Shown here one piece after another: positions 1,069 to 30,900 of a stretch of 33,374 bases of DNA (its first letter is position 1; the number at the start of each line of letters is the position of its first letter). The position numbers and the translations under genes were made by a program. The notes below the pieces were generated by a model. It did not search any database. It saw only the letters and a program-made list of their open reading frames with translations, and was not told the origin of the DNA. The stretch is from contig JACQXU010000028.1 of NCBI GenBank assembly GCA_016208545.1, positions 1-33,374 of the forward strand. Direction: 5' to 3'. This DNA comes from Candidatus Uhrbacteria bacterium. Its GTDB lineage: Bacteria > Patescibacteriota > Patescibacteriia > UBA9934 > GWF2-40-263.

Positions 1069-1388
1069 TTTTGTAAAATTGGACAGAGAGTTCGTTACAA
1101 TTGAATATAGATATTTATAGTAAAGAGAACCATGGGCGATCATTTAAGAATCGAATTCTTGAATGGTTGCAGAGCATCTAAGAGCATACGGAGGATGGCT
1201 AGACAGAACGTGCCGATGAAGGACGTAGCAGCCTGCGATAAGCTTCGGGGAGGTGGCAAGCAACCTTTGATCCGAAGATGTCCGAACGGGGAAACCCGAT
1301 GCGGGGAATGCCGCATCGTTCGTTGCTGAATTCATAGGCAACGGAAGGGCACCTGGGGAAGTGAAACATCTCAGTACCCAGAGGAAAA

Positions 1389-1471
1389 TAAAAAATATGT
1401 TAGGTTATAGGTTTTAGGTTCTAGGTTTTGGGAATTTCTCAACACCTACTCACTTAAAACCTAACACCTAA
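1389..1471 (+). repeat. hairpin expansion segment in 23S domain I built from 7-nt-period repeats
   Basis: It replaces the short GAAATCAACCGAGATTCC stretch of E. coli between GAGGAAAA and CCCTAAGTAGCGGCGAGCG. The left arm is TAGGTTA TAGGTTT TAGGTTC TAGGTTT and the right arm is AAAACCTAACACCTAA, its approximate complement. Confidence 0.6.
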
Positions 1472-1824
1472 TCCATTCCCTAAGTAGCGGCGAGCGAAAA
1501 GGGAACAGTCCAAACCATGATCGTGAAACCACGGCAATCATAAAGACGCAAGTCAATGTGTGAGCGGTGGCGAAAGGTGGAAGCCGTTGCGATCGTCGGT
1601 GTTGCAAGATGGTTACGTTGTCTTCTTCTAAAGACAAGTGAAATTGGTGATTTATAGCGAAAGCGACTGGAACGTCGCACCAAAGAAGGTGAAAGTCCTG
1701 TACGCGAAATAAATGCATCATTTCATTGTAATCATTCTTAAGTACTACGAGGCTCGTGAAACCTTGTAGGAACCTGCCGGGACTATCTGGCAAGACTAAA
1801 TACACGTTCTGATCGATAGTGAAC

Positions 1825-1858
<34 letters not shown>

Positions 1859-1908
1859 AAGGGGAATGAAATAGTTTCTGAAACCGTATGCTTACAAGGA
1901 GTCAGAGC

Positions 1909-2090
1909 TCCGTGTCTCACTTTCGTTCGACACGGAAATCCGAAATTCGAATGTCGAAATTCGAAATAAATTCCAAATTATAAATTCCAATGTTTCAAAT
2001 AATATTTGAGATTTATGATTTAGTTATTGTTTCGTATTTCGTATTTAGAGTTTAGAGTTTCCTCGTGACGAGCGGTAGCGAGACACGGGG
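1909..2090 (+). repeat. about 180-nt expansion at the helix-25 position of 23S, made of 7-nt-period arrays
   Basis: It is closed by CCGTGTCTC (1910-1918) pairing with GAGACACGG (2080-2088). The inside carries the arrays GAAATCC GAAATTC GAATGTC GAAATTC and TTCGTAT TTCGTAT TTAGAGT TTAGAGT. Helix 25 is a known site of intervening sequences in other bacteria. Confidence 0.6.
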
Positions 2091-2190
2091 TGATGGCGTT
2101 CCTATTGAAGAATGAGCCAACGAGTGTGTTGTGCGCCGCTGGTTAAGTCCTCCGGGACGGAGCCATAGTGAAAGCGAGCGTTAACCCGCG

Positions 2191-2262
2191 AATTTGGATT
2201 TTAGAAGTGAGAAGTTAAAGGTTGGATTTCCAATTTCTAACTTCCAACTTCCAATTTCCATT
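2191..2262 (+). repeat. about 70-nt hairpin insertion in 23S domain II, 7-nt period
   Basis: The GAAGTGA GAAGTTA array faces TTCCAAT TTCTAAC TTCCAAC TTCCAAT. It is inserted between GTTAACCCGCG and AGTGACGCGCACACGACCCGAAACC. Confidence 0.6.
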
Positions 2263-2655
2263 AGTGACGCGCACACGACCCGAAACCGGGTGACCTATCC
2301 ATGTGCAGGGTGAAGCGAATGTAACAATTCGTGGAGGCCCGAACCCACGTGCTGTGCAAAACACGGGGATGACATGTGGATAGCGGTGAAATTCCAATCG
2401 AACTCGGTAATAGCTGGTTCTCCCCGAGATAGCTTTAGGGCTAGCGTCGGTAAATAACACATAGGGGGTAGAGCACTGAAAGGGCTTTGCGGCTTCGGCT
2501 AGCGAGCCTTACCAAACTCCGAATACCTATGTGTGTTCCCGGCAGTCAGACGATGGGGGCTAAGCTCCATCCGTCAAAAGGGTAACAGCCCAGATCTCAA
2601 ACTAAGGCCCCTAAATCGCCATTAAGTGTAAAAGGTGGTGGGAAGGCTTAAACAA

Positions 2656-2686
<31 letters not shown>

Positions 2687-3450
2687 TAAAGATAGCGTAA
2701 CAGCTCACTGGAGAAGCGGTAGGGGAGCATTTGCATTGCGATGAAGCTGATGGGTGACCATTGGTGGAGCGATGCGAAGTGAGAATGTTGGCATGAGTAG
2801 CAAAAAGACGGGTGAAAATCCCGTCCGCCGCAAACTTAAGGTTTCCTGGGCAACGCGAATCGTCCCAGGGTGAGTCGGGAGCTAAGGCGAGGCCGAAAGG
2901 CGTAGTCGATGCACAGCAGGTTAATATTCCTGCACTTTTTTTCAGACCAATGCGGGGACGCTTTTTGAAGTTTCCCGCGTTCTATGGCTATGACGTTGTG
3001 GATGTTTTTGCGCCTGGCAGGTAAATCCACCAGGCTGGGATCAAACCCAAGCACGAATATCACCGCAAGTTTGCTCTTACGAGCAGACAAGGGGAAAGGA
3101 CAAGGAGCCGAGAAAAGCCGCTAGGATTATCTGAAAAAGACCCGTACCGTAAACCGACACAGGTGAGTGGGCACGAAATGTGCTAAGGCGTACGAGAGAA
3201 CCATCGTTTAGGAACTCGGCAAACAAGCGGCCGTAACTTCGGGATAAGGCCTGGTTGCTCCCGGGAGGGAGTGACCCGCAGCGAAAGACTTCAACCGACT
3301 GTTTACCAAAAACACAGGTCCCTGCTAAACCGAAAGGTGATGTATAGGGGCTGATGCCTGGCCAGTGTCCGAACGTTAAGGGAGGGGGTTAACCGCAAGG
3401 TGAAGCCTCTAACTGAAGCGCGGATGAACGCCGGCGATAACTATAATCGT

Positions 3451-3684
3451 GGACTCGCTACGCTCCATTTTAAATGGAGAAAGAGTAGGGCGATTATAAA
3501 ATCCAACTAAATGCTGGAACAGCTGGGAATACTACAGTACCGAGAAGGTAACAATCTGTAGTCGATGCAGCCAATCAGCAGGAAAGACTGTCAATTTGGC
3601 AGAATCCTCAGAGACTACACGTCGGACCCCGTAAAAGGGGATGATATAGTCCATACGATATGGCGACATATCGAGGCATATATG
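3451..3684 (+). mobile_element. ORF-less group I intron after the equivalent of E. coli U1923 (helix 69/71 region)
   Basis: The exon sequence AACTATAATCGT | CCTAAGGTAGCGAAATTCC is contiguous once 234 nt are removed. The 5' exon ends in T and the intron ends in G. The core motifs GAGACTACACGTCGG and GATGATATAGTCC resemble the Tetrahymena-type core (CAGACTAAATGTCGG, AGATATAGTCGG). Confidence 0.85.
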
Positions 3685-4000
3685 CCTAAGGTAGCGAAAT
3701 TCCTTGACGGGTAAGTTCCGTCCTGCACGAATGGCATAACGAGTTGAAGACTCTCTCAACGATGGGCTCGGCGAAATTGCAGTGTGAGTGAAGATGCTCA
3801 CTTCCCGTGGCAAGACGAAAAGACCCCATGAAGCTTTACTACAACTTGGTCTTGGGTTCATGTTCCGTATGTTCAGTGTAGGTGGGAGCCTTCGGGCGCC
3901 AATGAGACACCACCCTTATGCTACGTGAATTCTAACCACTCTCCATGAAACTGGAGAGAGGGACATGATCTGGTGGGTAGTTTACCTGGGGCGGGTGCCT

Positions 4001-4988
4001 TAACGGAGATTCATTGTTACATCCTTGAAAGAGGTTGAATCTCTATGGGGCCTTCTGTTCGTAATGACAGAATGCACATTTGGCTATATGCTGGAACCTC
4101 CTGTGAAATACGCAACGACCGAAATGGTAAAACAGTTGCGCAGCGCAATATATATTGTGCGCAGGACAATCAGCAGGGAAGTCCGGCAAAGCCGGATCCC
4201 TCAACGACTACACGCCAAATTCCCTTAATGGGAAATAATATAGTCTGAACTTCCGTGAGAACGGAAGATCTTATCGTGTGTCTATCCGCCCAGACATTAA
4301 CGCGATAGGGACCAAACAAAATTATATGCGAAGCAAAAAAATTGAGAATCTAGTTCATCATCTAAAACTTACGGATGAACAGCGAGAGATTCTTATTGGT
4401 ACGATGCTTGGTGATGGACATCTTGAAACAAAAAATAATGGACGGACATATAGATTGAAAATTGAACACACGATTTTACAACGATCGTATGTCGAGTGGT
4501 TTTATAAAAAGTTTCAGGATTGGGTTATAACAGCACCAGTCGTTCGTTCACGAGCAATTACGTTCCGTGGACAAACAAAAGCATGTGATCGCATTGGCTT
4601 TGCAACAATAAGCACCGGATCACTTAGATTTTATGCGAAACAGTTCTATAAAAATGGGAAAAAGATTGTTCCAAAATTGATCCATCGTTGGGTCACACCA
4701 AAAGTTTTGGCGGTTTGGTACATGGATGATGGTTCGATCAAATCGAATCATCACAAAACAGTTTTCCTTAATACGCATAACTTCACTGATCAAGATCTCG
4801 AACTATTACAGAAAGTGTTTGAGAAAAAATATGGGATCAAGACATCAATCAGAACACAGAAAGATGGAAAGCAGATTTATTTTCTTTCAGAAACCGTACA
4901 AATCTTTCTAAAGTTGATCGAACCGTATGTGATTCCATCGATGCGATACAAATTACCAAAAGTTTGGTTAACACAATTGCCCAAAATG
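4001..4988 (+). mobile_element. group I intron just 3' of the P loop (about E. coli 2262-2272), carrying a LAGLIDADG gene
   Basis: The exon reads CTGGGGCGGGTGCCT | TAACGGAGGCG. The 5' exon ends in T and the intron ends in G. The core motifs CAATCAGCAGGGAAG, CAACGACTACACGCC and AATAATATAGTCTGAAC resemble those of intron 1. The exact boundaries are ambiguous because TAACGGAG occurs at both 4001 and 4989. Confidence 0.8.
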
Positions 4989-4991
4989 TAA
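4278..4991 (+). CDS. double-motif LAGLIDADG homing endonuclease (I-SceI-like family)
   Basis: The two motifs are ILIGTMLGDGHL and LAVWYMDDGS. The C-terminal LIEPYVIPSMRYKLP matches I-SceI IKPYLIPQMMYKLP. The start is GTG 4278 or ATG 4326. The stop TAA (4989-4991) is formed by the first three bases of the 3' exon. Confidence 0.85.
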   Translation: MSIRPDINAIGTKQNYMRSKKIENLVHHLKLTDEQREILIGTMLGDGHLETKNNGRTYRLKIEHTILQRSYVEWFYKKFQDWVITAPVVRSRAITFRGQTKACDRIGFATISTGSLRFYAKQFYKNGKKIVPKLIHRWVTPKVLAVWYMDDGSIKSNHHKTVFLNTHNFTDQDLELLQKVFEKKYGIKTSIRTQKDGKQIYFLSETVQIFLKLIEPYVIPSMRYKLPKVWLTQLPKM

Positions 4992-5168
4992 CGGAGGCGT
5001 TTACTAAGGTCGGCTTAGCGCGGATGGAAATCGCGCTGGACGTGCAAACGCAGAAGCCGGCTCTACTGCAAGACTGACAAGTCGCGCAGTCGCGAAAGCG
5101 GAAGTTAGTGATCCGACCGTACGAAATAGGACGGCGGGAGCTCAACGGATAAAAGCTACTCTGGGGAT

Positions 5169-6062
5169 ACATCTGTGTCCCGTCTGATGGCAACATCAGA
5201 CAAAGTACATGGCTAATAACGGTGAAACCCTATTTGTTCCACGATGGAGATCGTGGCACGAGGTGTAAATAGATAGGGCAATACCGTGGGAAGTCGGGGG
5301 AAGGTAACATGCATTATTATGAAGTTATCTTCAATACAAAAAGAAATCATCTATGGTACGGTTTTGGGTGATGCGTTTTTGCAAAAAACAGGAACGCAGA
5401 ATGCTCGGCTCAGGCTTGAGCATTCAGAGAAACAAGAGGCCTACATGTCTTGGAAGTATCAACAGTTAGAAAATCTCTTCGCCAACAAACCAACCAAAAT
5501 GAAACGAACGCATCCAATCACAAGAAGAACATACGGATATGTTCGTCTACAAAGTCATTCATCACCTTGGTTTGGGAAGTTACGGGAACAGTTTTATCTG
5601 AATGAAAAAAAAATCATTCCGAAAAATTTCGACCGTTTTCTCAAAACAAGCCGCACACTTGCTGTGTGGTACATGGATGATGGTCATTATTATCAACGAG
5701 ATAAATCTGCGCATATTTATATGCAGAAACTTTCTGAAGAAGAAATCTTCAGACTCATTCAGACATTTGAGAAACAATTTTCGATTCGACCGAAGATTTA
5801 TTGTCGGCCAGATCGAAAGGCTTGTAAGTTGACGTTCAATGGACAAGATCTCAAACAGTTTGTCAGATTAATTCGACCGTATATAATTCCTTCAATGGAA
5901 TATAAACTCCCCCTTGACCCCGTAACGACTGAGAGCGAGAATCATTCAGTTTTTTGAGCTCAAGACTCAGCATTAAGCTGGGTAATATGCCGTGCCCCCG
6001 CCATTGGCGGGGTGAAGATATAGTCTACGCGAATGGTAACATTCGAATACGTTAAATACGTG
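5169..6062 (+). mobile_element. group I intron at the omega site (after U2449 equivalent) with a LAGLIDADG gene
   Basis: The exon reads CTCTGGGGAT | AACAGGCTAGTC. The T before the splice site and the terminal G are both present. GAAGATATAGTCTACGC lies near the 3' end. The 5' region GGCTAATAACGGTGAAACCCT...AGGGCAATACCGTGGGAAG is shared with intron 4. Confidence 0.85.
5319..5957 (+). CDS. double-motif LAGLIDADG homing endonuclease (I-SceI-like family)
   Basis: The motifs are IIYGTVLGDAFL and LAVWYMDDGHY, with C-terminal LIRPYIIPSMEYKLP. It is a paralog of the 4278 ORF. ATG 5319 is preferred over the upstream GTG 5286. Confidence 0.85.
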   Translation: MKLSSIQKEIIYGTVLGDAFLQKTGTQNARLRLEHSEKQEAYMSWKYQQLENLFANKPTKMKRTHPITRRTYGYVRLQSHSSPWFGKLREQFYLNEKKIIPKNFDRFLKTSRTLAVWYMDDGHYYQRDKSAHIYMQKLSEEEIFRLIQTFEKQFSIRPKIYCRPDRKACKLTFNGQDLKQFVRLIRPYIIPSMEYKLPLDPVTTESENHSVF

Positions 6063-6106
6063 AACAGGCTAGTCTCCCCCAAGCGTCCACAGCGACGGGG
6101 AGGTTC

Positions 6107-6137
<31 letters not shown>

Positions 6138-6173
6138 AGCTGTAGAAGGTTCCAAGGGTTTGGCTGTTCGCCA

Positions 6174-6209
<36 letters not shown>

Positions 6210-6966
6210 AAAATCATTGCGACCTCTCGCTGTAAAGCGAGAGAAAAATTTGGCTATATCGGTGAAACCCTCCTTAGCAAGACCGAACGCTAAGAGGGCA
6301 ATACCGAGGGAAGATTTGTGGTAAAATTGGAGTGGTATGCTCCAAGAATTTGAAAAAGCTTATATCGCCGGTTTCCTAGACGGCGATGGATGTATAATGT
6401 TTCAACTTGTCAAACGTAAAGACTACGTTTACGGTTTTCAAATTCGCGCAAGCATCGTCTTTTTTCAAAAGACGATCCATCGCGATCATTTGGAATGGAT
6501 AAAGGATAAGTTGAAATACGGATACGTTCGAGATAGAAATGACGGAATGTCAGAATATACGATTGTCGGGATAAACGAAGTGCGTGAGACTCTCAATCAA
6601 ATAGGTCCCTTTCTTAGATTGAAACAGTCGCACGTAAAGCTTGCATTCAAAATTTTTGAAACCATACCAAAGCGATTTGCTCCTTACACCATTTGGGTTG
6701 TAAGTGAGTTAGTCGATCAATTCTCACAGCTGAATTATTCCAAGAAGCGTACTAACACAACAGATACGCTTCTTGATTACTTTGCCGAATTGATGGATCA
6801 ATCACAAATCCCCGTAACGACTGATTCCAAGTACCGAGAGGGAACGGATGAGATAGCGAGAAAATTATGAAGATGGAATGCTATCACACGCCAACTCCTA
6901 TTCAAGAAGGAGAATTGAATAGGAAGAAGATATAGTCTATGCCATTAGAAATAATGGAATATCATG
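6210..6966 (+). mobile_element. group I intron in the GAACGTCGT|GAGACAG segment (E. coli about 2593-2596) with a LAGLIDADG gene
   Basis: The exon GAACGTCGT | GAGACAGTTCGGTC is contiguous after removal. The T before the splice site and the terminal G are both present. GAAGAAGATATAGTCTATGCC lies near the 3' end. Confidence 0.85.
6337..6870 (+). CDS. single-motif LAGLIDADG homing endonuclease (I-CreI-like, homodimer type)
   Basis: It has YIAGFLDGDGCI, GYVRDR and GPFLRLKQ, as in I-CreI (LAGFVDGDGSI, GYVRDR, QPFLKLKQ). It is 177 aa long. Confidence 0.85.
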   Translation: MLQEFEKAYIAGFLDGDGCIMFQLVKRKDYVYGFQIRASIVFFQKTIHRDHLEWIKDKLKYGYVRDRNDGMSEYTIVGINEVRETLNQIGPFLRLKQSHVKLAFKIFETIPKRFAPYTIWVVSELVDQFSQLNYSKKRTNTTDTLLDYFAELMDQSQIPVTTDSKYREGTDEIARKL

Positions 6967-7017
6967 GAGACAGTTCGGTCTCCTATCTGCCATGGGCAAC
7001 GAAGATTGAAGGAATCC

Positions 7018-7059
<42 letters not shown>

Positions 7060-7465
7060 ACCAGTTGTTCTGCCAAGAGCATTGCTGGGTAGCTACGTTC
7101 GGTGCGGATAAACGCTGAAAGCATCTAAGCGTGAAGTCGCTCCTAAGATTAGTCTTCATTAAGACCCCTTCGAGACTAGAAGGTTGATAGGCCATACGTG
7201 AAAGCGCTGTAAAGCGTTGAGCGGAGTGGTACTAATAGGTCAAGCTCTGCAACCATTTAAGGATTTGAAAAAATTTTGGCGATCTGTTGGCTTAGATCTG
7301 CGCCCACTTTCTCAACGACCGTTTTAGGTCGTCTCGGTCGTGTGCTCGACCTTAACCAACATCTCATCCAAAATTTATTGCAAATCCACTTGACGTGTTT
7401 CGCGTCGAGTGGCTCATCGGTTTTCTTTACATAATATCTTAAATAGAACTCTCTCAAAGAGTTCT

Positions 7466-12446: not shown

Positions 12447-12558
12447 ATTGCAACAGTTTATCACATTGACATAAATTTTTATAATGATACTATTCCGACA
12501 CATAAAGAGGTTTTAAACTGGCATGTAGTGCTTTCGTCCGGCTACATGCCTCGCTCGG

Positions 12559-12667
12559 AAATGGCCAACCTAACGGTTTGTCGCTTCATCAAAAATAGCC
12601 GAAGTGAAACTTTGTTTCCCTTCTTCAATTTTTGCTGAAGCGACAGGCCATAATAGCCTTGCCATTT
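12559..12667. repeat. 109-nt hairpin element bracketed by the direct repeat CTCGCTCGG
   Basis: The termini are AAATGGC (12559-12565) and GCCATTT (12661-12667). The inner stem pairs TGTCGCTTCA-T-CAAAAAT with ATTTTTG-C-TGAAGCGACA. CTCGCTCGG occurs at 12550-12558 and 12670-12678. Confidence 0.5.
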
Positions 12668-12678
12668 CACTCGCTCGG

Positions 12679-12890
12679 GGGCCAGTAGCTCAGTTGGTAG
12701 CCCCGCACTACAACAATGAAATAGTACGGCTGGTGGCGGGCCTGTAGCTCAGTTGGCTAGAGCGTCTGCTTTGCAAGCAGAAGGTCAAGGGTTCGAGCCC
12801 CTTCAGGTCCACCATAATCCGTTCTTCTCATTGTTGTAGTGCGGGGTTGCAAGCAGGGGGTCTGGGGTTCGAATCCCCACTTGTCCACCA
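12679..12890 (+). pseudogene. tRNA-Ala-like gene split by a 146-nt insert and lacking about 10 nt (D-stem 3' strand plus anticodon-stem 5' strand)
   Basis: The 5' piece GGGCCAGTAGCTCAGTTGGTAG (12679-12700) and the 3' piece TTGCAAGCAGGGGGTCTGGGGTTCGAATCCCCACTTGTCCACCA (12847-12890) align with tRNA-Ala positions 1-22 and 33-76. This includes G3:U70, the UGC anticodon, the T arm and CCA. No equivalent of AGCGCCTGCT is present. Confidence 0.5.
12738..12814 (+). tRNA. tRNA-Ala(UGC): tRNA-Ala (anticodon UGC), CCA encoded
   Basis: The cloverleaf is: acceptor GGGCCTG/CAGGTCC with G3:U70; D arm GCTC-AGTTGGCTA-GAGC; anticodon arm TCTGC-TTTGCAA-GCAGA; T arm AAGGG-TTCGAGC-CCCTT; then ACCA. Confidence 0.9.
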
Positions 12891-12892
12891 TC

Positions 12893-12925
12893 AAAAATAT
12901 CCGAACAAAGTTCGGATATTTTTGA
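12893..12925 (+). terminator. intrinsic terminator after the tRNA locus
   Basis: AAAAATATCCGAAC-AAA-GTTCGGATATTTTT forms a 14-bp stem that ends in a T run. Confidence 0.75.
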
Positions 12926-12986
12926 ATCTTCGAGTTTGTTTTAATCTAATTATTCACATCTCATGTTATAATATACTAAACAAAGT

Positions 12987-13614
12987 ATGCCGCACATTCA
13001 TTTATCTTCAATTAAACTTGTTGACGGTTTCAAAATTCGCAACACGCTTGATTGAAACAGGTAATCTTTCCGGTCACCATCTTCGTTCGTATTTGAAACA
13101 GAAAATTTTATTACAAGGCCCGATTCCTAAATTTGTTGTTCGAAAAGAAAAACGTCGAAATTTGCGTCTTGTGTTTGTGGATGGCGCAATTATAAGAAAG
13201 TATATGGATCCGGAATTTATTTTAGGAGGACATGATCTTATTTACCCAACTTACATTCCAAAAGGAGAAATTTGGTTGGAAGCGAGCATGAACAAAAAAG
13301 AAATTCCATTTATTTTTGAACATGAATTGTTAGAGCGAACACTCATGTCAAAAGGGAAAAATTATGACATTGCACACGAATACGGAACAAGTATTGAAAA
13401 AGAAACACGGCGGCTCGCAAAAGTTGGATGTTATCCTGGAGACGCAGATTACAAATGGAGACACTTAACAAATGAAGAAATTACTAAAAAATATTATCTT
13501 TCTTGGAGTGAAAAAGCTCCGGAGTCAATGTTATTTTCCGATTTGAAAAGTTTGTTTGGGAGCAACGTGAGTCTGCCTCGTGTGCATGATCACGGATTTT
13601 GGGATCGCAATTAA
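12987..13614 (+). CDS. hypothetical protein; as assembled it needs a +1 shift at 13053 (or starts at TTG 13048)
   Basis: TATAAT at 12967-12972 lies 14 nt before ATG 12987. The ORF MPHIHLSSIKLVDGFKIRNTLD stops at TGA 13053. The long frame continues IETGNLSGHH.... The N-terminal peptide resembles the internal LRLVFVDGAIIRKYMDPEFILGGHD. The ORF-track N-terminus (12847-) is tRNA sequence. Confidence 0.4.
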
Positions 13615-16457: not shown

Positions 16458-19073
16458 TTATAACCCAGATATACCTCGAATAACAAAAGGCAAGATTCCA
16501 CCGTGGCGGAAATATTCGCATTCAACAACAGAGTCAAGTCGGCAAAGAACTTCGAATGTTTTGTTAGAACCGTCTGAATTCAAGGCTGTAACTGTGATTT
16601 TTTGTCCAGGTTTCAGATCATTATCAATTGGAATTGTAAATTTTCCACGACCCGTCAGGCCGATTATTTTTCTGTTTTGTCCTTCCAAAAATTGCAAAGG
16701 CAAAATTCCCATACCAATCAAATTACTTCTGTGAATCCGCTCGACACTTTCAAATAAAACTGCGCGCACGCCAAGTAGCGCTGGGCCTTTTGCCGCCCAA
16801 TCGCGAGACGAACCCATGCCATAATCTTTTCCAGCAATTACAACAAGTGGCGTTTTTTCTTTTTTGTATCGTTCTGCCGCTTCGAAAACTGAAGTCAGTT
16901 CATCTGTTGGAATGTGAATTGTAACACCTCCTTCAGTTCCTGGCGCAAGTTCATTTTTGAGTCTGACGTTTGCAAACGTTCCACGCATCATCACCTCATG
17001 ATTTCCTCTTCGTGCTCCGTAAGAGTTGAAATCTTTTGGTTCAATTCCGTTTTCTCGCAAATAATCCGCTGTCGGGCCAGTTCGTGCGATGTTTCCGGCC
17101 GGCGAAATATGATCAGTAGTCACAGAATCTCCAAGAACAAGAAGCGCTCTGGCTTCGTAAATCGGTTTGATTGCGTCAGGTTTTTTTGTGAGTCCAGCAA
17201 AAAATGTTGGCAAACGAATGTACGTTGATTTTTCATTCCATTTGTAAAGATTATCATTTGGCACAGACAGCGATTTCCACTGATCGCTTCCGACAGTCAC
17301 ATTTTGATATTGTGTTTTGAACAGTTCTGGTTTTAGCACGTTGTGAACGATAGATTGAATTTCTTGATTTGACGGCCAGATGTTTCGAAGAAAAATTGGA
17401 AGACCGTCAGGGTCGTGTCCAATAGGCTCATTTTCAAAATCAATATCAACTCGGCCTGCAAGAGCAAACGCAACAACAAGCGGAGGTGAAGCAAGGAAAT
17501 TTGCGCGTGTGATTGAATGAATCCGTCCTTCAAAATTTCTGTTCCCAGACAAAACAGAAGCAGTGACAAGTTTATTTTCTTCAACTATTTTTGTGAGTGA
17601 ATCATCGATAGGTCCGCTGTTGCCGATACATGTTGTGCATCCAAATCCAACAATATGAAATCCCAAAGTTTCCAAACTTTTAATAAGTCCAGAAGATTCA
17701 AGATATGCTTTTACAACTTGCGATCCAGGAGCGAGCGATGTTTTGACGTGCGACGGAGTGCGCAAACCGTTTTTGACTGCATTGCGCGCGAGAAGTCCTG
17801 CCGCGAGCATCACACTTGGGTTTGATGTGTTTGTGCAAGAAGTTATCGCGGCAATTAAGACAGAACCGTCGTGAATATTTCCATTGTCTTTGGAAGAGTT
17901 TGCTTCGTCTCCAAGAAATTTTTGAAATGTATTTTTTATATCTTTCAGTGCGACTCGATCTTGAGGACGAGTTGGACCAGCAACCGAGGTTTCTATTTCT
18001 GACAAATCAATTTCGATCGTTTCGGAATATTTAATATCATTTTGCGGCAACCCACCTTGTTCCACCCTTGGGAAAGGGGGAAAAACAAACAATCCTTGCG
18101 CGCGCAAATATCTCTCGGCTAAGTGCACTTGCTCGATGTCTCGTCCGGTGTTAATGAGATAGCGAATCGTTTCTGCGTCTGGCGGGAAAAATCCGATCGT
18201 TGCTCCGTACTCTGGAGCCATGTTCGAAATCGTTGCACGATCTGGAAGGGACAAAGTTGCAACAGCGGATCCAAAAAATTCGACAAATTTTTCAACAACT
18301 CCGTGCGAGCGCAAACGCTGTGTAATCGTCAAAACCAAATCTGTTGCAGTGACGCCATTTTTTAGCTCGCCAACAAGTCGCACACCAACAACTCGCGGAA
18401 TCAAAATGGAAATCGGCTGTCCTAGCATCGCGGCTTCGGCTTCAATTCCACCAACTCCCCATCCGAGCACACCAAGTCCATTTATCATTGTTGTATGTGA
18501 ATCCGTTCCAACGAGCGTGTCTGGAAAAATTTGTCCATCTTTTGTCGTAACAGTCGTTGCAAGATATTCCAAATTTACTTGATGTACAATTCCTGTTGCT
18601 GGTGGAATTACACGGAAGTTTTTGAAAACGTTTTGTCCCCATCGCAAAAATTCATAACGTTCACTATTGCGTTCAAATTCGCGCTCTGTATTTTGTGCGA
18701 GCGCTTCCGGCGATCCATAAGAATCAACCTGAACAGAATGATCAATTACTAAATCAACAGGCACTTTAGGATTGATTGCGGATGGGTCTATTCCAAAAGA
18801 TTTAACTGTTTCGCGCAACGCGGCCAAATCTACTACAGCCGGAACGCCGGTAAAATCTTGCATAAGAACGCGAGATGGATAAAACGGAATTTCTTGGTTA
18901 TGAAGTTCGTTGTCTCCCCATTTTAATTTTATTCGCTCTGCCATTTCTTCGTGCCCGTTTCGTAAAAGATTTTCAACCAAAATTCGAATAGAAAAAGGCA
19001 AATGTGAAACATCCACAAGCGCTGGGTATCGGAATTTTTCAGAGTCAGTTATTATTTCTAAGTTCTGTTTCAT
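16458..19073 (-). CDS. acnA: aconitate hydratase A
   Basis: It is full length, with LPFSIRILVENLLRN, MQDFTGVPAVVDLA, DHSVQVD, GTDSHTTMINGLG, CTNTSNP, GCTTCIGNSGP, NRNFEGR and SSRDWAAKG. Start MKQNLEII (ATG 19073) is preferred over the ORF-track start at 19175, which would translate the intergenic repeat. Confidence 0.95.
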   Translation of the reverse strand: MKQNLEIITDSEKFRYPALVDVSHLPFSIRILVENLLRNGHEEMAERIKLKWGDNELHNQEIPFYPSRVLMQDFTGVPAVVDLAALRETVKSFGIDPSAINPKVPVDLVIDHSVQVDSYGSPEALAQNTEREFERNSERYEFLRWGQNVFKNFRVIPPATGIVHQVNLEYLATTVTTKDGQIFPDTLVGTDSHTTMINGLGVLGWGVGGIEAEAAMLGQPISILIPRVVGVRLVGELKNGVTATDLVLTITQRLRSHGVVEKFVEFFGSAVATLSLPDRATISNMAPEYGATIGFFPPDAETIRYLINTGRDIEQVHLAERYLRAQGLFVFPPFPRVEQGGLPQNDIKYSETIEIDLSEIETSVAGPTRPQDRVALKDIKNTFQKFLGDEANSSKDNGNIHDGSVLIAAITSCTNTSNPSVMLAAGLLARNAVKNGLRTPSHVKTSLAPGSQVVKAYLESSGLIKSLETLGFHIVGFGCTTCIGNSGPIDDSLTKIVEENKLVTASVLSGNRNFEGRIHSITRANFLASPPLVVAFALAGRVDIDFENEPIGHDPDGLPIFLRNIWPSNQEIQSIVHNVLKPELFKTQYQNVTVGSDQWKSLSVPNDNLYKWNEKSTYIRLPTFFAGLTKKPDAIKPIYEARALLVLGDSVTTDHISPAGNIARTGPTADYLRENGIEPKDFNSYGARRGNHEVMMRGTFANVRLKNELAPGTEGGVTIHIPTDELTSVFEAAERYKKEKTPLVVIAGKDYGMGSSRDWAAKGPALLGVRAVLFESVERIHRSNLIGMGILPLQFLEGQNRKIIGLTGRGKFTIPIDNDLKPGQKITVTALNSDGSNKTFEVLCRLDSVVECEYFRHGGILPFVIRGISGL

Positions 19074-22510: not shown

Positions 22511-23521
22511 TTATTTTAATTTCAGGACTCGGAATGCGGCAGTGATAATTGATCGTGCGGTAAGTCCAAACGCTTCTTGCAGTTGACGAGGTTCTCCGGA
22601 TTCTCCAAAACGATCTTGCACTCCGATTCGTTCAACCGGCACTGGAGTTGAAAGACATACTGTTTCAGCCACAGCTCCGCCAAGTCCGCCGACGGCTTGA
22701 GCTTCTTCGACTGTTACGATCGCGCCGGTTTCCTTTGTGGCCTTGATGATTGTTTTTACATCAAGCGGTTTGATCGTGTGCATGTTGATGACTCTTGCTT
22801 CGATTTTGTGGTCGAGTGATAGAATTTGCGCAGCTAACAAAGCTTCATAAAGAAGAGGTCCAGCCGCTATTATTGTGAGGTCATTGCCGAAGCGATATGT
22901 TTCAGCTCGGCCGATTTTGAATGGAGTTTTTTCTGTTGTGAAAACCGGAGATTTTTCACGTGCAAAACGAATATAGCAAGGACTTGAAAGTTTTGCGATT
23001 GCAATCGTTGCTTTTTTTGTTTCAAAAGAGTCGCACGGAACAAAAACTTTCATATTTGGCATTACACGCATGATCGCGATGTCTTCAATCATTTGATGAG
23101 TCGCGCCGTCTGGCCCAACCGAAACTCCTGCGTGAGCTCCTGCAATTTTCACATTGCTGTTTTGTATCGCGATTGTTGTTCTGATTTGTTCCCAATTGCG
23201 TCCCGGAGAAAAACACGCGTAACTTGAAATAAATGGAATTTTTCCAGTGATTGCCATTCCAGCCGCGATCGAAGCCATTGATTGCTCGCTGACTCCAAGT
23301 TGAACGAAGCGGTCAGGAAAAGCGTTTTTGAACGCGAGCGAACGTGTGGATTCTGTGAGATCTGCGCACAAAACCACTATGTTTTTGTCTTTTTTTCCAG
23401 CTTCGACAAGCCCATCGCCGTATCCATTTCTGGTTGGCACTTGTTCGAGTTTGTCAGGATCAAAAAGATGACGAACAAGATACGCCTCGCGATTAATGCC
23501 TGATTGTTGTTTTGTTTTCAT
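22511..23521 (-). CDS. tkt: transketolase, C-terminal (pyrimidine-binding plus C-terminal domain) subunit
   Basis: It has PTRNGYG, VVLCADL, FPDRF...GVSEQ, FISSYACF, AGVSVGPDGATHQ and a transketolase C-terminal domain. It is 336 aa. Confidence 0.9.
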   Translation of the reverse strand: MKTKQQSGINREAYLVRHLFDPDKLEQVPTRNGYGDGLVEAGKKDKNIVVLCADLTESTRSLAFKNAFPDRFVQLGVSEQSMASIAAGMAITGKIPFISSYACFSPGRNWEQIRTTIAIQNSNVKIAGAHAGVSVGPDGATHQMIEDIAIMRVMPNMKVFVPCDSFETKKATIAIAKLSSPCYIRFAREKSPVFTTEKTPFKIGRAETYRFGNDLTIIAAGPLLYEALLAAQILSLDHKIEARVINMHTIKPLDVKTIIKATKETGAIVTVEEAQAVGGLGGAVAETVCLSTPVPVERIGVQDRFGESGEPRQLQEAFGLTARSIITAAFRVLKLK

Positions 23522-23850
23522 AAATTATCTGTCATTGCGAGGGAGTCTTCAGACGACCGAAGCAATCTCCTCGTATAAGTCGTTCCATTTTGGAATAGTC
23601 GAGTTGATAAGTTCAACTTTTTTTTTCTTGAACCAGCTTTGAGTTGTTTTTCTCTTGAGATTGCATTGTAAGCTTCTTCGCACATTTCGTAATAAACAAG
23701 TTTGTTCAGATTATATTTTTTTGTAAATCCATCTATTAATTTTTCTCTATGTTCCCAGATTCTGCGAACGATGTTGTTGGTAACTCCAATATATAAAACT
23801 CGATTGTTGGTATTTGTAAGGATATAGACAAAATAAAGTTTATCTTCCAT
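23518..23850 (-). CDS. GIY-YIG nuclease family protein (YhbQ / COG2827-like)
   Basis: It has FYFVYILTNTNNRVLYIGVTNNIVRRIWEH, GFTKKYNLNKLVYYE and AISREKQLK. ATG 23850 is preferred, because the ORF-track N-terminal extension is a translated repeat arm. The C-terminus is out of register with the family after an A9 tract (see findings). Confidence 0.8.
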   Translation of the reverse strand: MEDKLYFVYILTNTNNRVLYIGVTNNIVRRIWEHREKLIDGFTKKYNLNKLVYYEMCEEAYNAISREKQLKAGSRKKKLNLSTRLFQNGTTYTRRLLRSSEDSLAMTDNL

Positions 23851-23948
23851 AAAATATGCATAGATTGCTTCGCGGAGTTTACCCTGAGCGAAGTCCCGCT
23901 TCCAGACGGGACCCCGCCAGAGGCGGTGGTCGAAGGGCTCGCAATTAC
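23531..23948. mobile_element. palindromic element with a GIY-YIG gene in its loop (putative autonomous copy of the GTCATTGCGAGG repeat family)
   Basis: The first arm is GTCATTGCGAGGGAGTCTTCAGACGACCGAAGCAATCTC (23531-23568). The second arm is AGATTGCTTCGCGG...GGGCTCGCAATTAC (23862-23948), in inverse orientation, degenerate and expanded. Only the GIY-YIG ORF lies between them. Confidence 0.55.
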
Positions 23949-23959
23949 ACAAATGAAAT

Positions 23960-24856
23960 CTATTCGTGTTCGCTCTTTATTTTTCCGCCAAGAGTGCGAA
24001 GCCACGCGAGCGCAGATTTTGCTTCAGAAAACGTTGGTGGTTTCCCATGCCATAAAAAGTCGTGTTCCATAAAATCAACTCCATATCCTGGAATTGTGTC
24101 TGCGATAATTACACTAGCTTTTTCGCTCATGCCGTGCGCTTGTTCAACAGCGCTTACAAAATCACGAATCGAATTTCCAGCACAGCGAATCACATTCAAA
24201 TTAAACGCTTCAAATTTTGCTTGCAAAGATTCAAGCGGCATGATTTCTTCGGTCGGTCCGTCAATCTGAATGTTGTTTCTGTCGATTATAAAAGTGCAGT
24301 TGTAAAGTTTGTTGCGTCCAGCAAAAAGCATTGCCTCCCAAGTTTGGCCTGCTTCGAGTTCGCCATCGCTCATTACACAATAAACTCGCCATGGCGCGTG
24401 ATTTAGAAGTCCAACATAGGCAATTCCAACTGCTTGAGATGATCCAGACCCGAGCGGGCCAGAAGTTGCTTCAACACCCGGCAGTTTTTCTCGTTCAGGA
24501 TGTCCTTGAAGAGGCGAGCCGAATTTGCGGAGAGTTTTGAGCCACGTTTTTGGAAAATATCCTGCGTGCGCCATCGCGGCGTAGCGAACAGGACAAATAT
24601 GTCCGTTTGAAAGAATCAAACGATCGCGGTCTTTCCAATTCGGTCGTTTTGGATCGTGGACCATCACATGAAAATAGAGTGCTGTAAAAATATCAGCCAT
24701 TCCAAGCGGGCCGGCTGAATGACCAGAGCCTGCCTCGACTAGCATTTTTATAATGTCTTCACGAATTTCAAAAGCTTTTTCTTCGAGTTTTTTGAGTTGT
24801 TTGTCGTGCAAGTGAAGTGGTTTTCTCACTTTTGGGCCTATCGCGAGATTTGGCAT
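23960..24856 (-). CDS. tkt: transketolase, N-terminal (thiamine-diphosphate-binding) subunit
   Basis: It has GSGHSAGPLGMADI, ILSNGH, LQGHPE, TSGPLGSGSSQAVG and MSDGELEAGQTWEA. ATG 24856 is preferred over TTG 24877. Confidence 0.9.
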   Translation of the reverse strand: MPNLAIGPKVRKPLHLHDKQLKKLEEKAFEIREDIIKMLVEAGSGHSAGPLGMADIFTALYFHVMVHDPKRPNWKDRDRLILSNGHICPVRYAAMAHAGYFPKTWLKTLRKFGSPLQGHPEREKLPGVEATSGPLGSGSSQAVGIAYVGLLNHAPWRVYCVMSDGELEAGQTWEAMLFAGRNKLYNCTFIIDRNNIQIDGPTEEIMPLESLQAKFEAFNLNVIRCAGNSIRDFVSAVEQAHGMSEKASVIIADTIPGYGVDFMEHDFLWHGKPPTFSEAKSALAWLRTLGGKIKSEHE

Positions 24857-24881
24857 AGTAAAAACATTGTAGCACAAACTA

Positions 24882-27697: not shown

Positions 27698-27820
27698 AAT
27701 AAAAATATTTTATCACAATCGCAGACAAACACAGTAATTTTTCTGTTTTCTCGCTACCTGGTAGCGAGAAGTTGGTTTTTTTGATTTTTTCTAGATTTTT
27801 TGGCATACTCGATGCGTATG

Positions 27821-27950
27821 CCCGGTAGGACAACAATGATCCGTCTCTTGTCCTTCTGTGCTTTAACACAAGCTGTACGACACCCTACGTAAGGAGTCGA
27901 AACAACGGCGGATAAAGAAAATTAACAAATATCATTGTTGTACTACCGGG
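27821..27950 (+). promoter_or_regulatory. 19-nt inverted repeat enclosing the last 130 nt of the ileS leader
   Basis: CCCGGTAGGACAACAATGA (27821-27839) pairs with TCATTGTTGTACTACCGGG (27932-27950) with 1 mismatch. The right arm ends 1 nt before ATG 27952. The only AAGGAG (27891-27896) lies in the enclosed loop. Confidence 0.5.
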
Positions 27951-27951
27951 T

Positions 27952-30900
27952 ATGAATTTTTCACAACGTGAGCAAGAAATCCTAAAACAATGGGACGATC
28001 GAAAAATTTTCAAAAAAACATTGGAGAAAGACGCGCCTAAGGGCTCGTTTGTGTTTTTTGAAGGTCCGCCAACAGCAAATGGACGGCCTGGCATTCATCA
28101 TGCCGAATCCCGTGCGTTTAAGGATAGCATTCCGCGTTTTCGCACAATGCAAGGGTATCGAGTTGTGAGAAAAGGCGGTTGGGACACACATGGTTTACCT
28201 GTTGAAATTGAAGTTGAAAAGCAACTTGGGTTCACTGGCAAAGCCCAGATTGAAGAATTTGGGATCGCGAAATTTAATGAGCTTTGCAAACAAAACGTTT
28301 GGAAATATAAAAAGGAGTGGGAAGAATTTACAAAGCGACTCGGTTTTTGGGTTGATCTTGAAAATGCGTATGTTACTTACGCGCCAGAATACATTGAATC
28401 TTTGTGGTGGGTGATCAAACAAGTATGGAATAAAGGACTTTTATACAAAGATTACCGTGTGACACCTCATTGCCCGCGTTGCGGAACGTCATTATCAAGC
28501 CACGAACTCGCGCAAGGATATAAAGATGTGAAGGATTTGAGTGTGACGGCGAAGTTTAGAATTGAAAGTCATGGAGTCACAGAGTCATGGAGTAATGGAA
28601 CTTCGGAATACATTTTGGCGTGGACAACAACGCCGTGGACATTGCCTGGGAATGTCGCGCTTGCTGTTGGAAAAGATATTGATTATGTGAAAGTGAAACA
28701 AGGTGATGAATTTTTGTGGTTAGCAAAAGACCGTCTTCAAATTTTAACAGGCGAATATGAAATCATCGAAGAAGTAAAAGGCGAAAAACTGGTTGGAAAA
28801 AAGTACGAACCGCTTTATCCGTATCTTAGAGATGTCATTGCGAGGAGCGAAGCGACGAAGCAATCTAGCGAAGAGATTGTTTCTATGGGTCAAGGTCTCC
28901 CTCGCAATGACAGAGATTCTGCTTTCACTATCGTTCCCGCCGATTTCGTCACAACACAAGATGGAACCGGAGTTGTTCACACAGCTGTAATGTACGGAGT
29001 TGATGATTTTGAATTGGGAAATAAAATTGGTCTTCCAAAACATCATGTTGTGAAACTTGACGGGACGTTTATTGAAGGAATGGATTTTCTTTCCGGTCGT
29101 TTTGTGGCTGACGAAGCTGTTGCTGTTGATATTATAAAAGATTTAGCGCATCGCGGACTTTTGTTCTCAAAAGAAAAGTTTGAACACTCATATCCGCACT
29201 GTTGGCGATGCAAAACAAAACTCATCTATTACGCAAAAGATTCTTGGTATATCGCAATGACTAAACTACGCGATGAACTTTTGAAACAAAATGACAATAT
29301 CCACTGGGAGCCGGAGCATATTAAGAATGGGCGATTTGGTGAATGGTTGCGCGAGGTGAAAGACTGGGCGTTTTCGAGAGAGCGTTATTGGGGAACACCG
29401 CTTCCGATTTGGGAATGTGAAAGTTGCAAACATCAAATGTGTGTTGGGAGTTTTGAAGAGTTGCAGTCATTGCGAGCGACCAACGGAAGCGAAGCTATCT
29501 CTGCGACTGAAGAGATTGCTTCGGTCGGCAAGAGCATCCCTCGCAATGACGAGGCAAATTTCGATCCTCATCGTCCTTATATTGATGAGATTAAAATCGT
29601 ATGTGAAAAATGTTCAGGTTCTGCAAAGCGTGTTCCGGATGTGTGTGATGTTTGGTTTGATTCAGGCGCAATGCCGTTTGCGCAGTGGCATTATCCATTT
29701 GAAAATAAAGAGATTGTTGATTCAGGTGAAGAATATCCGGCAGATTATATTTCAGAAGCCATTGATCAAACTCGTGGATGGTTTTATACACTTCTCGCTG
29801 TTGCGACTTTGCTTGGGAAAGAACGGCCGTTTAAAAATGTGATTTGTTTAGGACACGTTTTAGACGCTGAAGGAAAAAAGATGAGCAAGTCTCTCGGAAA
29901 TATAGTTTTACCGATGGAAGCAATGGAAAAGTTCGGCGCTGATGCAATTCGTTGGTACATGTACACAATCAATCAGCCAGGTGAGTCAAAACGGTTTGAT
30001 GAAAAAGCGCTTTCAGAAATGGTGAAAAAGAATTTTGGAATTTTGTCGAACGTTGTTTCTTTCTATAAAATGTTTTCTACTCCACGACTCCACGACTCCA
30101 CGACTCTACGACTCCACATTCTCGATCGTTGGATTCTCGCGCGACTTCACAAACTCACAAAAGAAACAACTTCAAGACTCGAAAATTATATTATCACTGA
30201 AACCGTTCGAGAGCTCGGAGATTTTATTGATGATCTCTCAACTTGGTATGTTCGTCGTTCGCGCGATAGGTTTAAGGGCACAAACGAAAAAGATAAGCAG
30301 TCTGCGATCGCGACTTTGCATGAATGTCTTTTGACTTTTTCAAAACTTATCGCGCCGTTTGCGCCGTTTTTAGCTGAAACTGTTTATCAAGACATTGGAG
30401 GAGAAAAAGAATCTGTTCATTTGGAAGATTGGCCGGCGTTTGATGATTCTATGATTGATGAAAATCTGCTTTTGGATATGAAAACCGTTCGCGGAATTGT
30501 TTCTCGTGTTCTTGAACGTCGTTCAGAAGCTCAAATTCCAGTGCGACAAGCGCTTGGTTCAATGAAAGTAATTCTTCCAACAGGAGAACTGTCTCAAGAA
30601 TATCAAGATTTGATTTTGGATGAAGTGAATGTCAAAAAGATTGAAGTTCAAAAAGGCGATTTGTCAGTTGAACTTGATTTAACTCTTACACCAGAACTTT
30701 TGCGTGATGGAATTGCACGCGAAATTATTCGTCGTGTGAATACGCTTCGAAAAGAGAAGGGCTTGACGATCAATAATCGAATTGAATTGTTTGTTTCGGG
30801 TTCAGACGAAGTTTTTCGAGTTGTCGAAGAACATCGTGCTGAACTTTTGCACGGAACACTTTCAGATTTGATTCGCACAAAAGGCAGTTCGCCAGAAACA

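Follow-up and report, generated by a model that had tools for sequence, protein, structure and literature searches.

A tRNA-Ala gene nested within a disrupted tRNA-Ala gene of a Candidatus Uhrbacteria bacterium: a probable tRNA-carrying mobile cassette

Results

A complete tRNA-Ala gene lies between the halves of another

We analyzed a 33,374-nucleotide (nt) stretch of DNA from a Candidatus Uhrbacteria bacterium (assembly GCA_016208545.1, contig JACQXU010000028.1, positions 1–33,374; hereafter, the window), in which a complete gene for an alanine transfer RNA (tRNA), tRNA-Ala(UGC), is enclosed by a pair of inverted repeats and lies between the two parts of a second tRNA-Ala gene. The nested locus, which is on the forward strand, begins with nt 1–22 of the outer, resident tRNA-Ala(UGC) gene (12679–12700; GGGCCAGTAGCTCAGTTGGTAG, the same as in the intact ortholog of L120–L125, with L numbers designating loci from other genomes) and ends with nt 33–76 of that gene (12847–12890; TTGCAAGCAGGGGGTCTGGGGTTCGAATCCCCACTTGTCCACCA, delimited by alignment to the intact orthologs). 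Between these remnants lies a cassette of 146 base pairs (bp), 77 of which are tRNA and which encodes no protein. It consists of a left terminal inverted repeat (12701–12719; CCCCGCACTACAACAATGA), an 18-nt leader (12720–12737), in which GGUGG can pair with CCACC at the 3' end of the cargo tRNA in the predicted folds, the complete cargo tRNA-Ala(UGC) gene (12738–12814; 77 nt, with G3:U70 and an encoded CCA), a 13-nt trailer delimited from the sequence and the folds (12815–12827), and a right terminal inverted repeat (12828–12846; TCATTGTTGTAGTGCGGGG). The two arms are exact reverse complements of each other, for which 0.00 matches were expected from dinucleotide shuffles.

The inner gene was called as a canonical tRNA-Ala(UGC) by ARAGORN and scored 72.6 bits with the Rfam tRNA model. 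The outer halves gave no tRNA call with ARAGORN or with the Rfam tRNA model at E ≤ 10, and they retain G3:U70 (G at 12681, T at 12884). The RNA of the locus is predicted to fold into a single long helix with the inner cloverleaf at its tip (−105.1 kcal/mol, z = −7.0), and the same hairpin is predicted for single-stranded DNA. In the predicted fold, the arm helix can be extended without bulges to 23 pairs, four of which (GUAG/UUGC) reach into the outer remnants. The entire intergenic region of the nested unit is strongly structured (z = −12.5). A preliminary description of this DNA, made without database searches, had assigned the outer halves to nt 1–22 and 33–76 of a tRNA-Ala lacking about 10 nt, and had noted the perfect 19-bp arms and the complete tRNA-Ala(UGC) between them. 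The arms and the inner gene are present as described, and the assignment of the halves proved exact when compared with intact 76-nt orthologs, save for one substitution at 12882.

The resident gene is uninterrupted in related lineages

Syntenic loci of five related lineages were found via the neighboring L,D-transpeptidase, whose identity to the protein of the window was 81, 77, 76, 64, and 60%, and the gene order on both sides of the locus was conserved in these lineages. At the same spot, ARAGORN identified one uninterrupted tRNA-Ala(UGC) gene in all five (5/5; intact loci L120–L126, L138, and L140). The three closest lineages have a common 76-nt allele, GGGCCAGTAGCTCAGTTGGTAG-AGCACCTGCT-TTGCAAGCAGGGGGTCTGGGGTTCGAATCCCCACTGGTCCACCA, and the outer halves in the window match this allele base for base, save for two changes: the ten bases AGCACCTGCT (nt 23–32) have been swapped for the 146-nt insert, and G68 has been replaced by T at 12882, which breaks the C5:G68 pair of the acceptor stem. 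The resident allele is otherwise invariant across lineages whose neighboring protein has diverged by approximately 20%. Because its halves match the allele of the relatives minus 10 nt, with G68T in addition, the outer gene is, on this comparison, the resident tRNA-Ala gene, disrupted in the window lineage only and showing a first sign of decay. The comparison also shows that the ancestral locus held one intact tRNA-Ala gene, which had a promoter and a terminator of its own, and since the relatives carry the uninterrupted ortholog, the arrangement is an insertion specific to the window lineage.

Degenerate material was also observed beside the intact gene in some relatives. Upstream of the gene start at 4001 in L121 and L122, a degenerate 3' fragment of a tRNA-Ala gene follows the intact tRNA-Ala gene, in the orientation of the window, at a distance of approximately 40–280 nt; the anticodon arm of this fragment is replaced by a GC hairpin, and its T loop contains an insertion of approximately 95 nt. 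The tRNA-Ala locus is a repeated target of non-coding insertions.

The cargo tRNA matches the allele of another Uhrbacteria lineage

Of 77 aligned columns, the cargo tRNA and the resident allele agree in 64 and differ in 13, the differences in the T stem and those at pair 6:67 being compensatory. The longest runs common to both alleles are 15 and 13 nt. Over its full length (77/77), the cargo is identical to the tRNA-Ala(UGC) gene that is resident at the syntenic position in L140 (GCA_016219925.1), a more distant member of Uhrbacteria, and L138 carries yet another tRNA-Ala allele. This identity shows the cargo tRNA to be, as far as its sequence goes, a foreign allele from a different Uhrbacteria lineage.

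A second element with related arms lies upstream of ileS

A mismatch-tolerant arm search, followed by direct reading of the sequence, located a second element of the same inverted-repeat family 15 kb from the cassette (copy 2; 27817–27954 including its target duplication, forward strand). Copy 2 is 130 bp long. Its left arm (27821–27839; CCCGGTAGGACAACAATGA) and right arm (27932–27950; TCATTGTTGTACTACCGGG) are complementary at 18 of 19 positions; compared with the cassette arm, the left arm is identical at 15 of 19 positions and the reverse complement of the right arm at 16 of 19. The interior, of 92 nt, is not a tRNA, and the hairpin fold of the element has a z-score of −6.4. Termini of the form CCCNGNANNACAACAATGA thus occur a further time in the window, at 27821–27950. 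The sequence TACAACAATGA at 18485–18495 was considered as a third family site and rejected as a chance match; it lies inside an aconitase open reading frame (ORF), without the CCCNG extension or a partner arm.

Copy 2 is situated between the ileS promoter region and the start codon, and it is bounded by a 4-bp duplication, TATG (27817–27820 and 27951–27954), which includes the ileS start codon. In L137, whose isoleucyl-tRNA synthetase (IleRS) is 82% identical, the orthologous site is empty (GTATGAAT, reading ...CGATCCGTATGAATTT), and the ileS leader of L135 is likewise without an insert. Copy 2 is a classical insertion with a 4-bp target duplication, and it follows from the duplication and the empty site that the inverted-repeat family is, or was, mobile as DNA. 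At approximately 2860–3000 of L136, a different hairpin element of approximately 150 nt, with the inverted repeat TGTCATTGCG.../...CGCAATGACA, was observed at the same TAT upstream of ileS; this TAT site is an insertion hot spot.

Nested tRNA genes occur in other genomes

Searching 185,579 species genomes for pairs of tRNA 5' motifs too near each other to belong to tandem genes gave at least 119 loci. The matches listed included 23 more candidates with a complete tRNA set between the two portions of another tRNA, usually a cognate one, and 16 of these 23 came from metagenome-assembled genomes labeled as Patescibacteria lineages. The candidate set was heterogeneous. In L030, L057, L008, and L111, the nesting was three deep, as expected from repeated insertion if the delivered tRNA is itself a target. 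The order observed at these loci was a 5' fragment with an arm, a second 5' fragment with an arm, a full tRNA, and then the matching 3' parts.

In L082, which is from another CPR lineage, a tRNA-Thr(UGU) gene is enclosed by the cassette termini TCCCGCAC.../...GTGCGGGA, which are near those of the window (CCCCGCAC.../...GTGCGGGG), and the termini of the two loci are related as YCCCGCAC...GTGCGGGR. The geometry is also that of the window, with the 5' junction in the D stem and the 3' junction in the anticodon loop. The resident tRNA-Thr(UGU) gene is intact behind a homologous upstream flank in L144 and L145; the region 3' of the nested tRNA in L082 is rearranged, and the intact tRNA-Thr of the relatives is still found approximately 3 kb away. 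The outer halves in L082 correspond to the tRNA-Thr of the relatives minus 11 nt, CAACAGTTTTG (nt 25–35), with a pair-breaking C7A change in the acceptor stem, and the cargo is a different tRNA-Thr(UGU) allele. L131, a metagenome contig, contains a tRNA-Val within a tRNA-Val, with almost the same arm ends and the same layout. In the recurrent pattern, a YCCCGCAC-ended cassette with a cognate tRNA takes the place of approximately 7–11 nt located between the D stem and the anticodon loop, and integration, not later decay, probably accounts for the missing bases. At 777–2087 of L082, approximately 500 nt upstream of the nested tRNA-Thr, we also observed an ORF that matches the IS110/IS116/IS902 family (PF02371).

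Other inserts, in Patescibacteria loci, are of a kind whose precise removal would restore the outer tRNA. These are the D-loop inserts with the arms CCTGCCCGCC.../...GGCAGGCGGG (L089, L032, and L041) and the anticodon-loop inserts with the ends CACCCCG.../...CGGGGCAAG (L066 and L106), and they may be spliced introns of an unfamiliar type. In L066, where a tRNA(CAU) lies within a tRNA-Lys(UUU), the 3' tail of the insert, CAAG, can pair with nt 32–34 of the anticodon loop. A tRNA-Ile(UAU) within a tRNA-Ile(UAU) was observed in L006, L029, L085, L017, and L108. In the first four of these, two to four nt of the anticodon loop (TATA or part of it) are duplicated at the junctions, and this looks like a target-site duplication at TAT(A/G), the target motif of copy 2; L108 is without the duplication, and 19 nt of its outer gene are missing.

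In the Patescibacteria loci L037, L012, L032, and L085, tRNA or tRNA-like genes contain short palindromes, such as CCTGCCTGCCGGCAGGCAGG, inserted in their D loop, T loop, or 5' end, and in L085 such palindromes also occur outside tRNAs. In Bacteroidota (L010, L023, L101, L093, L098, L116, and L088), tandem arrays of truncated tRNA-like units, with a TCCCGNC...GNCGGGA hairpin in place of the anticodon arm, are found upstream of a genuine tRNA. The approximately 300 nt after the genuine tRNA of L010, L023, and L101 contain, from reading the DNA by eye, a small GIY-YIG-like ORF that runs into a 3' fragment of a tRNA; L093 has the fragments and the full tRNA with only a short spacer, without the GIY-YIG-like stretch.

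Genomic setting of the nested locus

A consensus scan located a sigma-70-like promoter of the resident tRNA-Ala gene (12466–12493, forward strand; TTGACA, 16 nt, TG-TACTAT). A TTGACA...TAnnAT block also precedes the intact gene in L120, L121, and L124, and the promoter in the window now probably drives the whole nested unit. Directly 5' of the tRNA is an older structured non-coding insert of approximately 160 nt, recognized by comparison with the relatives and by its long hairpins (12520–12678, approximate bounds, forward strand), which is missing from L120 and L121 and present in L124–126 at 89% identity. It is outside the cassette and within the same transcription unit. In L124, the counterpart of this insert lies between GGGCCAATAG and GGGCCAGTAG, which may represent a 10-bp duplication of nt 1–10 of the tRNA, and the pairing of the first hairpin is preserved despite sequence changes between the window and L124.

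On the other side of the nested locus, a perfect 16-bp hairpin, found as an inverted repeat, is followed by a T-rich tract (12891–12925, forward strand). Comparable hairpins follow the intact gene in the relatives, and the hairpin is probably the terminator of the resident gene; a simple terminator scan made no call at 12891–12925. The next gene (12987–13614) encodes 254 amino acids in the relatives, with no Pfam match. The copy in the window has a 137-nt internal deletion, its frame from the ATG at 12987 ends after 22 codons, and it is probably a pseudogene.

The 23S ribosomal RNA (rRNA) gene of the window (1182–7243), which is followed by a 5S rRNA gene, has been expanded to approximately 6 kb by insertions. 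It holds two group I introns (3457–3673 and 4033–4267) and three LAGLIDADG endonuclease ORFs (4278–4991, 5286–5957, and 6337–6870). A 23S rRNA gene stretched in this way is a hallmark of the Candidate Phyla Radiation (CPR), and homologs of both the L,D-transpeptidase beside the tRNA and the isoleucyl-tRNA synthetase of the window are annotated as Candidatus Uhrbacteria or Patescibacteria. Elsewhere in the window, a GIY-YIG ORF of 144 amino acids on the reverse strand (23518–23952) was observed between the split halves of a transketolase gene (22511–23521 and 23960–24877), and it is probably another selfish endonuclease gene. For one ORF of 461 amino acids in the window, the gene on record starts later and encodes 442 amino acids.

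Discussion

A mobile cassette that compensates for the gene it destroyed

We consider it highly probable that a short, non-autonomous, tRNA-carrying mobile cassette replaced nt 23–32 of the resident tRNA-Ala(UGC) gene and compensates for the gene that it destroyed. The preliminary description had raised the same idea, in the form of a hairpin-ended cassette that brought its own functional copy and was thereby a self-compensating insertion. The uninterrupted ortholog that it envisaged was found in five related lineages, the cargo is a foreign allele, and a further pair of termini was found in the window itself (27821–27950), all in favor of that idea. The nested tRNA-Thr gene of L082 is an independent parallel case.

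In the mechanism that we propose, a transposase or recombinase encoded elsewhere would move, or would once have moved, the cassette by recognizing its inverted repeats. CPR genomes usually contain one gene per tRNA species. A hit in an essential, presumably single-copy tRNA-Ala(UGC) gene would be tolerated only thanks to the cognate replacement in the cassette, and if the gene is single-copy, the cargo would match the target because insertion would be lethal unless the element supplied a working tRNA-Ala(UGC). With the resident gene dead, loss of the cassette would mean the loss of tRNA-Ala(UGC). The promoter and terminator used for expression would probably be those of the resident gene. Once transcribed, the two arms would pair into a clamp of 19–23 bp, which would keep the cargo cloverleaf apart from the outer halves, whose homology to it could otherwise lead to mispairing. 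Processing by RNase P and at the 3' end, perhaps along with cleavage of the clamp by RNase III, would then free the cargo tRNA, already bearing its CCA, and the outer remnants would be discarded. Three candidate routes could account for the loss of 10–11 bp of target: a standard insertion after which the element promoted a deletion next to itself, the capture of the element at a resected double-strand break, and recombination that copied a pre-formed nested locus.

Several points weigh against this interpretation. At the tRNA cassette, the target is not duplicated and lacks 10 bp, which does not match the footprint of standard DDE transposition. In the 33-kb window, to which the copy count applies, the inverted-repeat family has only two copies, with unrelated interiors and a likeness limited to the 19-nt arms. 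Pfam scans of 27 ORFs of the window, a set that covers nearly every ORF of 140 amino acids or more, found no match to a transposase or recombinase family, and mobilization must therefore come from elsewhere; the same scans gave no integrase match. The arms, the spacers, and copy 2 had no blastn-short match above chance in the other loci fetched, a scan of JGI metagenomes for the junctions of the window (TGGTAGCCCCG N{120,150} CGGGGTTGCAAGC) returned 0 matches, as did a scan of IMG/VR for the inverted-repeat pair, and in phage and plasmid collections, the tRNA part alone was matched and the arms were not. The flanks of the L140 tRNA are unlike the leader, trailer, or arms of the cassette and do not reveal the donor context. 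Finally, the single-copy status of tRNA-Ala(UGC) in this genome is an assumption, and the nested structure is read from an assembled contig.

Alternative explanations

Of the alternatives, the one that survives best, itself unlikely, is that the nested locus was acquired ready-made by horizontal transfer from a close relative, through homologous recombination via the tRNA halves or wider flanks, in a homing-like spread. The lack of a target duplication, together with the recurrence of the 10–11-nt loss in the window, L082, and L131, would fit an architecture that was copied, and the outer halves are the own allele of the window clade. CPR genomes are also rich in homing elements, of which the three LAGLIDADG ORFs in the 23S rRNA gene and the GIY-YIG ORF are examples in the window. 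However, such a transfer only shifts the origin of the architecture one step back, and copy 2, of the same family, has the features of a classical insertion with a target duplication. The JGI junction scan found no donor with the same nested tRNA-Ala, and the homology arms inside the tRNA are merely 22 and 44 nt long. Ready-made acquisition remains a real alternative for the last step of spread.

A local origin, in which a tandem duplication of the resident tRNA-Ala gene was followed by a palindrome-mediated scar with no mobile element involved, is very improbable. The direct repeats between the outer and inner genes and the other rearrangements at the tRNA locus in relatives are what such an origin could draw on, but the inner gene was not copied from the resident gene, which also speaks against the recombination scar mentioned in the preliminary description: only 64 of 77 columns agree, the T and acceptor stems show compensatory changes, and the sequence is identical to the allele of another lineage. 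This comparison of alleles largely refutes a local origin. Moreover, the arms are present again at another, unrelated site, where the target is duplicated, and the same architecture with related termini is found in a tRNA-Thr gene elsewhere.

We also give very little weight to an assembly artefact, that is, a chimeric join, within the conserved tRNA, of two co-occurring Uhrbacteria populations with one tRNA-Ala allele each. The window probably comes from a metagenome, each of the two alleles belongs to a different Uhrbacteria lineage, and the structure is that of an assembled contig. However, a chimera would yield a hybrid or a tandem; it would not place a whole gene and its unique spacers between perfect inverted repeats within a second gene, and the longest runs common to the alleles, 15 and 13 nt, are below the usual assembly k-mers. 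The flanks are collinear with those of the relatives on both sides, a second element with the same arms is present on the same contig, and analogous structures occur in independent assemblies from many studies.

Least probable of all is an element that acts at the RNA level, as an intron or a split-tRNA-like helix, and yields a functional outer tRNA-Ala or an alanine acceptor like that of transfer-messenger RNA (tmRNA): the outer part does retain G3:U70, the T arm, and CCA, the long helix exits at the place of the anticodon arm, akin to the tRNA-like domain of tmRNA, and removal of the insert would restore the outer tRNA in L089, L032, L041, L066, and L106, but in the window 10 nt of the intact ortholog are truly absent, and no excision rebuilds the cloverleaf (as the preliminary description had argued in setting aside an ordinary intron), the helix enters the remnants without 3-nt bulges and hence forms no bulge-helix-bulge, which also speaks against the split-tRNA-like processing substrate that had been suggested, no group I core was detected in 12450–13000 with Rfam Intron_gpI at E ≤ 10, a search that detects the 23S introns of the window, and the insert is too short for one, ARAGORN called no tmRNA and the Rfam scores were 19.3 bits (tmRNA) and 26.4 bits (tmRNA_permuted), below the gathering scores of 47, a mismatch has arisen in the acceptor stem of the outer gene, pointing to relaxed selection, and the arrangement is not conserved in relatives. 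The idea of a tmRNA-like outer part was also rejected on the grounds that nesting occurs in Thr, Val, Ile, and other tRNAs and that the interior is a complete tRNA, not a tag ORF. The fusion by deletion of a D-arm insert with an anticodon-loop insert was ruled out by the perfect complementarity of the arms over 19 bp.

Implications

The reading of the window as the product of a mobile cassette has a possible extension, which we put forward only tentatively and think somewhat less likely to be right than wrong. Patescibacteria may harbor a class of selfish "tRNA-replacing" elements that spread horizontally, knock out a single-copy tRNA gene, and substitute their own cognate allele, thereby becoming practically unlosable; their integration would remove approximately one helical turn (7–11 bp) between the D stem and the anticodon loop, and related inserts (L089, L032, and L066) could be bacterial tRNA introns that contain another tRNA.

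If the cassette is what we propose, a foreign allele carried by a tiny mobile element without ORFs can take over the site of a tRNA gene, which is essential and normally immovable. Such replacement would be a route of horizontal tRNA exchange combined with genetic addiction, for which our literature searches found no earlier description. Patescibacteria, which have minimal tRNA sets, contain many similar nested tRNAs, and standard tRNA finders report the inner gene and miss the disrupted outer one. The recurrent loss of 10–11 bases of target without duplication suggests that integration proceeds by a reaction still to be understood, and the inserts whose removal would restore the outer tRNA raise the question of whether some bacteria splice tRNA introns other than those of group I.

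Comparison with known systems

The preliminary description knew of no bacterial precedent, and none turned up here: full-text literature searches (nested or disrupted tRNAs, CPR tRNA introns, as well as miniature inverted-repeat transposable elements [MITEs] in tRNA genes) found no such element described, and one meeting report mentions CPR introns in rRNA genes only. Some of the loci that we collected bear a partial likeness to the window. The Bacteroidota loci L010, L023, and L101 also have a full tRNA between the remnants of a cognate tRNA; unlike the window, the Bacteroidota loci appear to contain an endonuclease-like ORF or tandem arrays and belong to another phylum, and the link is one of resemblance only. 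In L051, L127, and L133, nt 23/25–32/34 of tRNA-like units are replaced by short palindromes ending in YCCCGC...GCGGGR, with the junction geometry of the window.

To our knowledge, group I introns in anticodon loops, which are mobile, are the only well-known interruptions of bacterial tRNA genes. The cassette differs from them in having no ribozyme core, a length of only 146 nt, a position at 22/33, and exons that cannot be restored. In archaea, tRNA introns and split or tri-split tRNAs are known, and some of the introns are mobile-like (Fujishima et al. 2009, 2010, as summarized in PMC10714607). The window shares with these a non-canonical interruption, GC-rich complementary flanks, and an interrupting sequence that is apparently mobile. 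Unlike the archaeal introns, the cassette is found in a bacterial host, has no bulge-helix-bulge, leaves a tRNA that cannot be restored, consists of an insert with a complete tRNA, and appears to be a recent DNA insertion.

Integrative elements such as prophages, integrative and conjugative elements, and genomic islands enter tRNA or tmRNA genes, carry the displaced segment, and keep the gene intact. An example for a tmRNA gene is given in PMC3146451. Like them, the cassette targets a tRNA gene and itself repairs the damage done. Whereas the integrative elements are kilobases long, encode an integrase, and restore the 3' part of the gene via a direct repeat (att sites), the cassette is 146 bp long with inverted-repeat ends and no integrase within it, supplies a whole independent tRNA, and leaves the resident gene dead.

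MITEs and mobile insertion cassettes (MICs) are non-autonomous bacterial elements with inverted repeats of the insertion sequence (IS) type, and MICs carry passenger genes and no transposase. The category of MICs and its original reference (Chen et al. 1999) are listed in PMC6199540. Like these elements, the cassette is short, has perfect terminal inverted repeats, lacks a transposase, and carries a passenger gene, in this case a tRNA; furthermore, there are at least two copies with common termini, with empty sites in relatives and a 4-bp target duplication at copy 2. Unlike them, the tRNA cassette replaces 10 bp without a duplication, its passenger is cognate to the gene destroyed, no parent IS with these termini is known, and the two copies are alike in their arms only. 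Among known categories, the MITE or mobile insertion cassette is the closest to the tRNA cassette.

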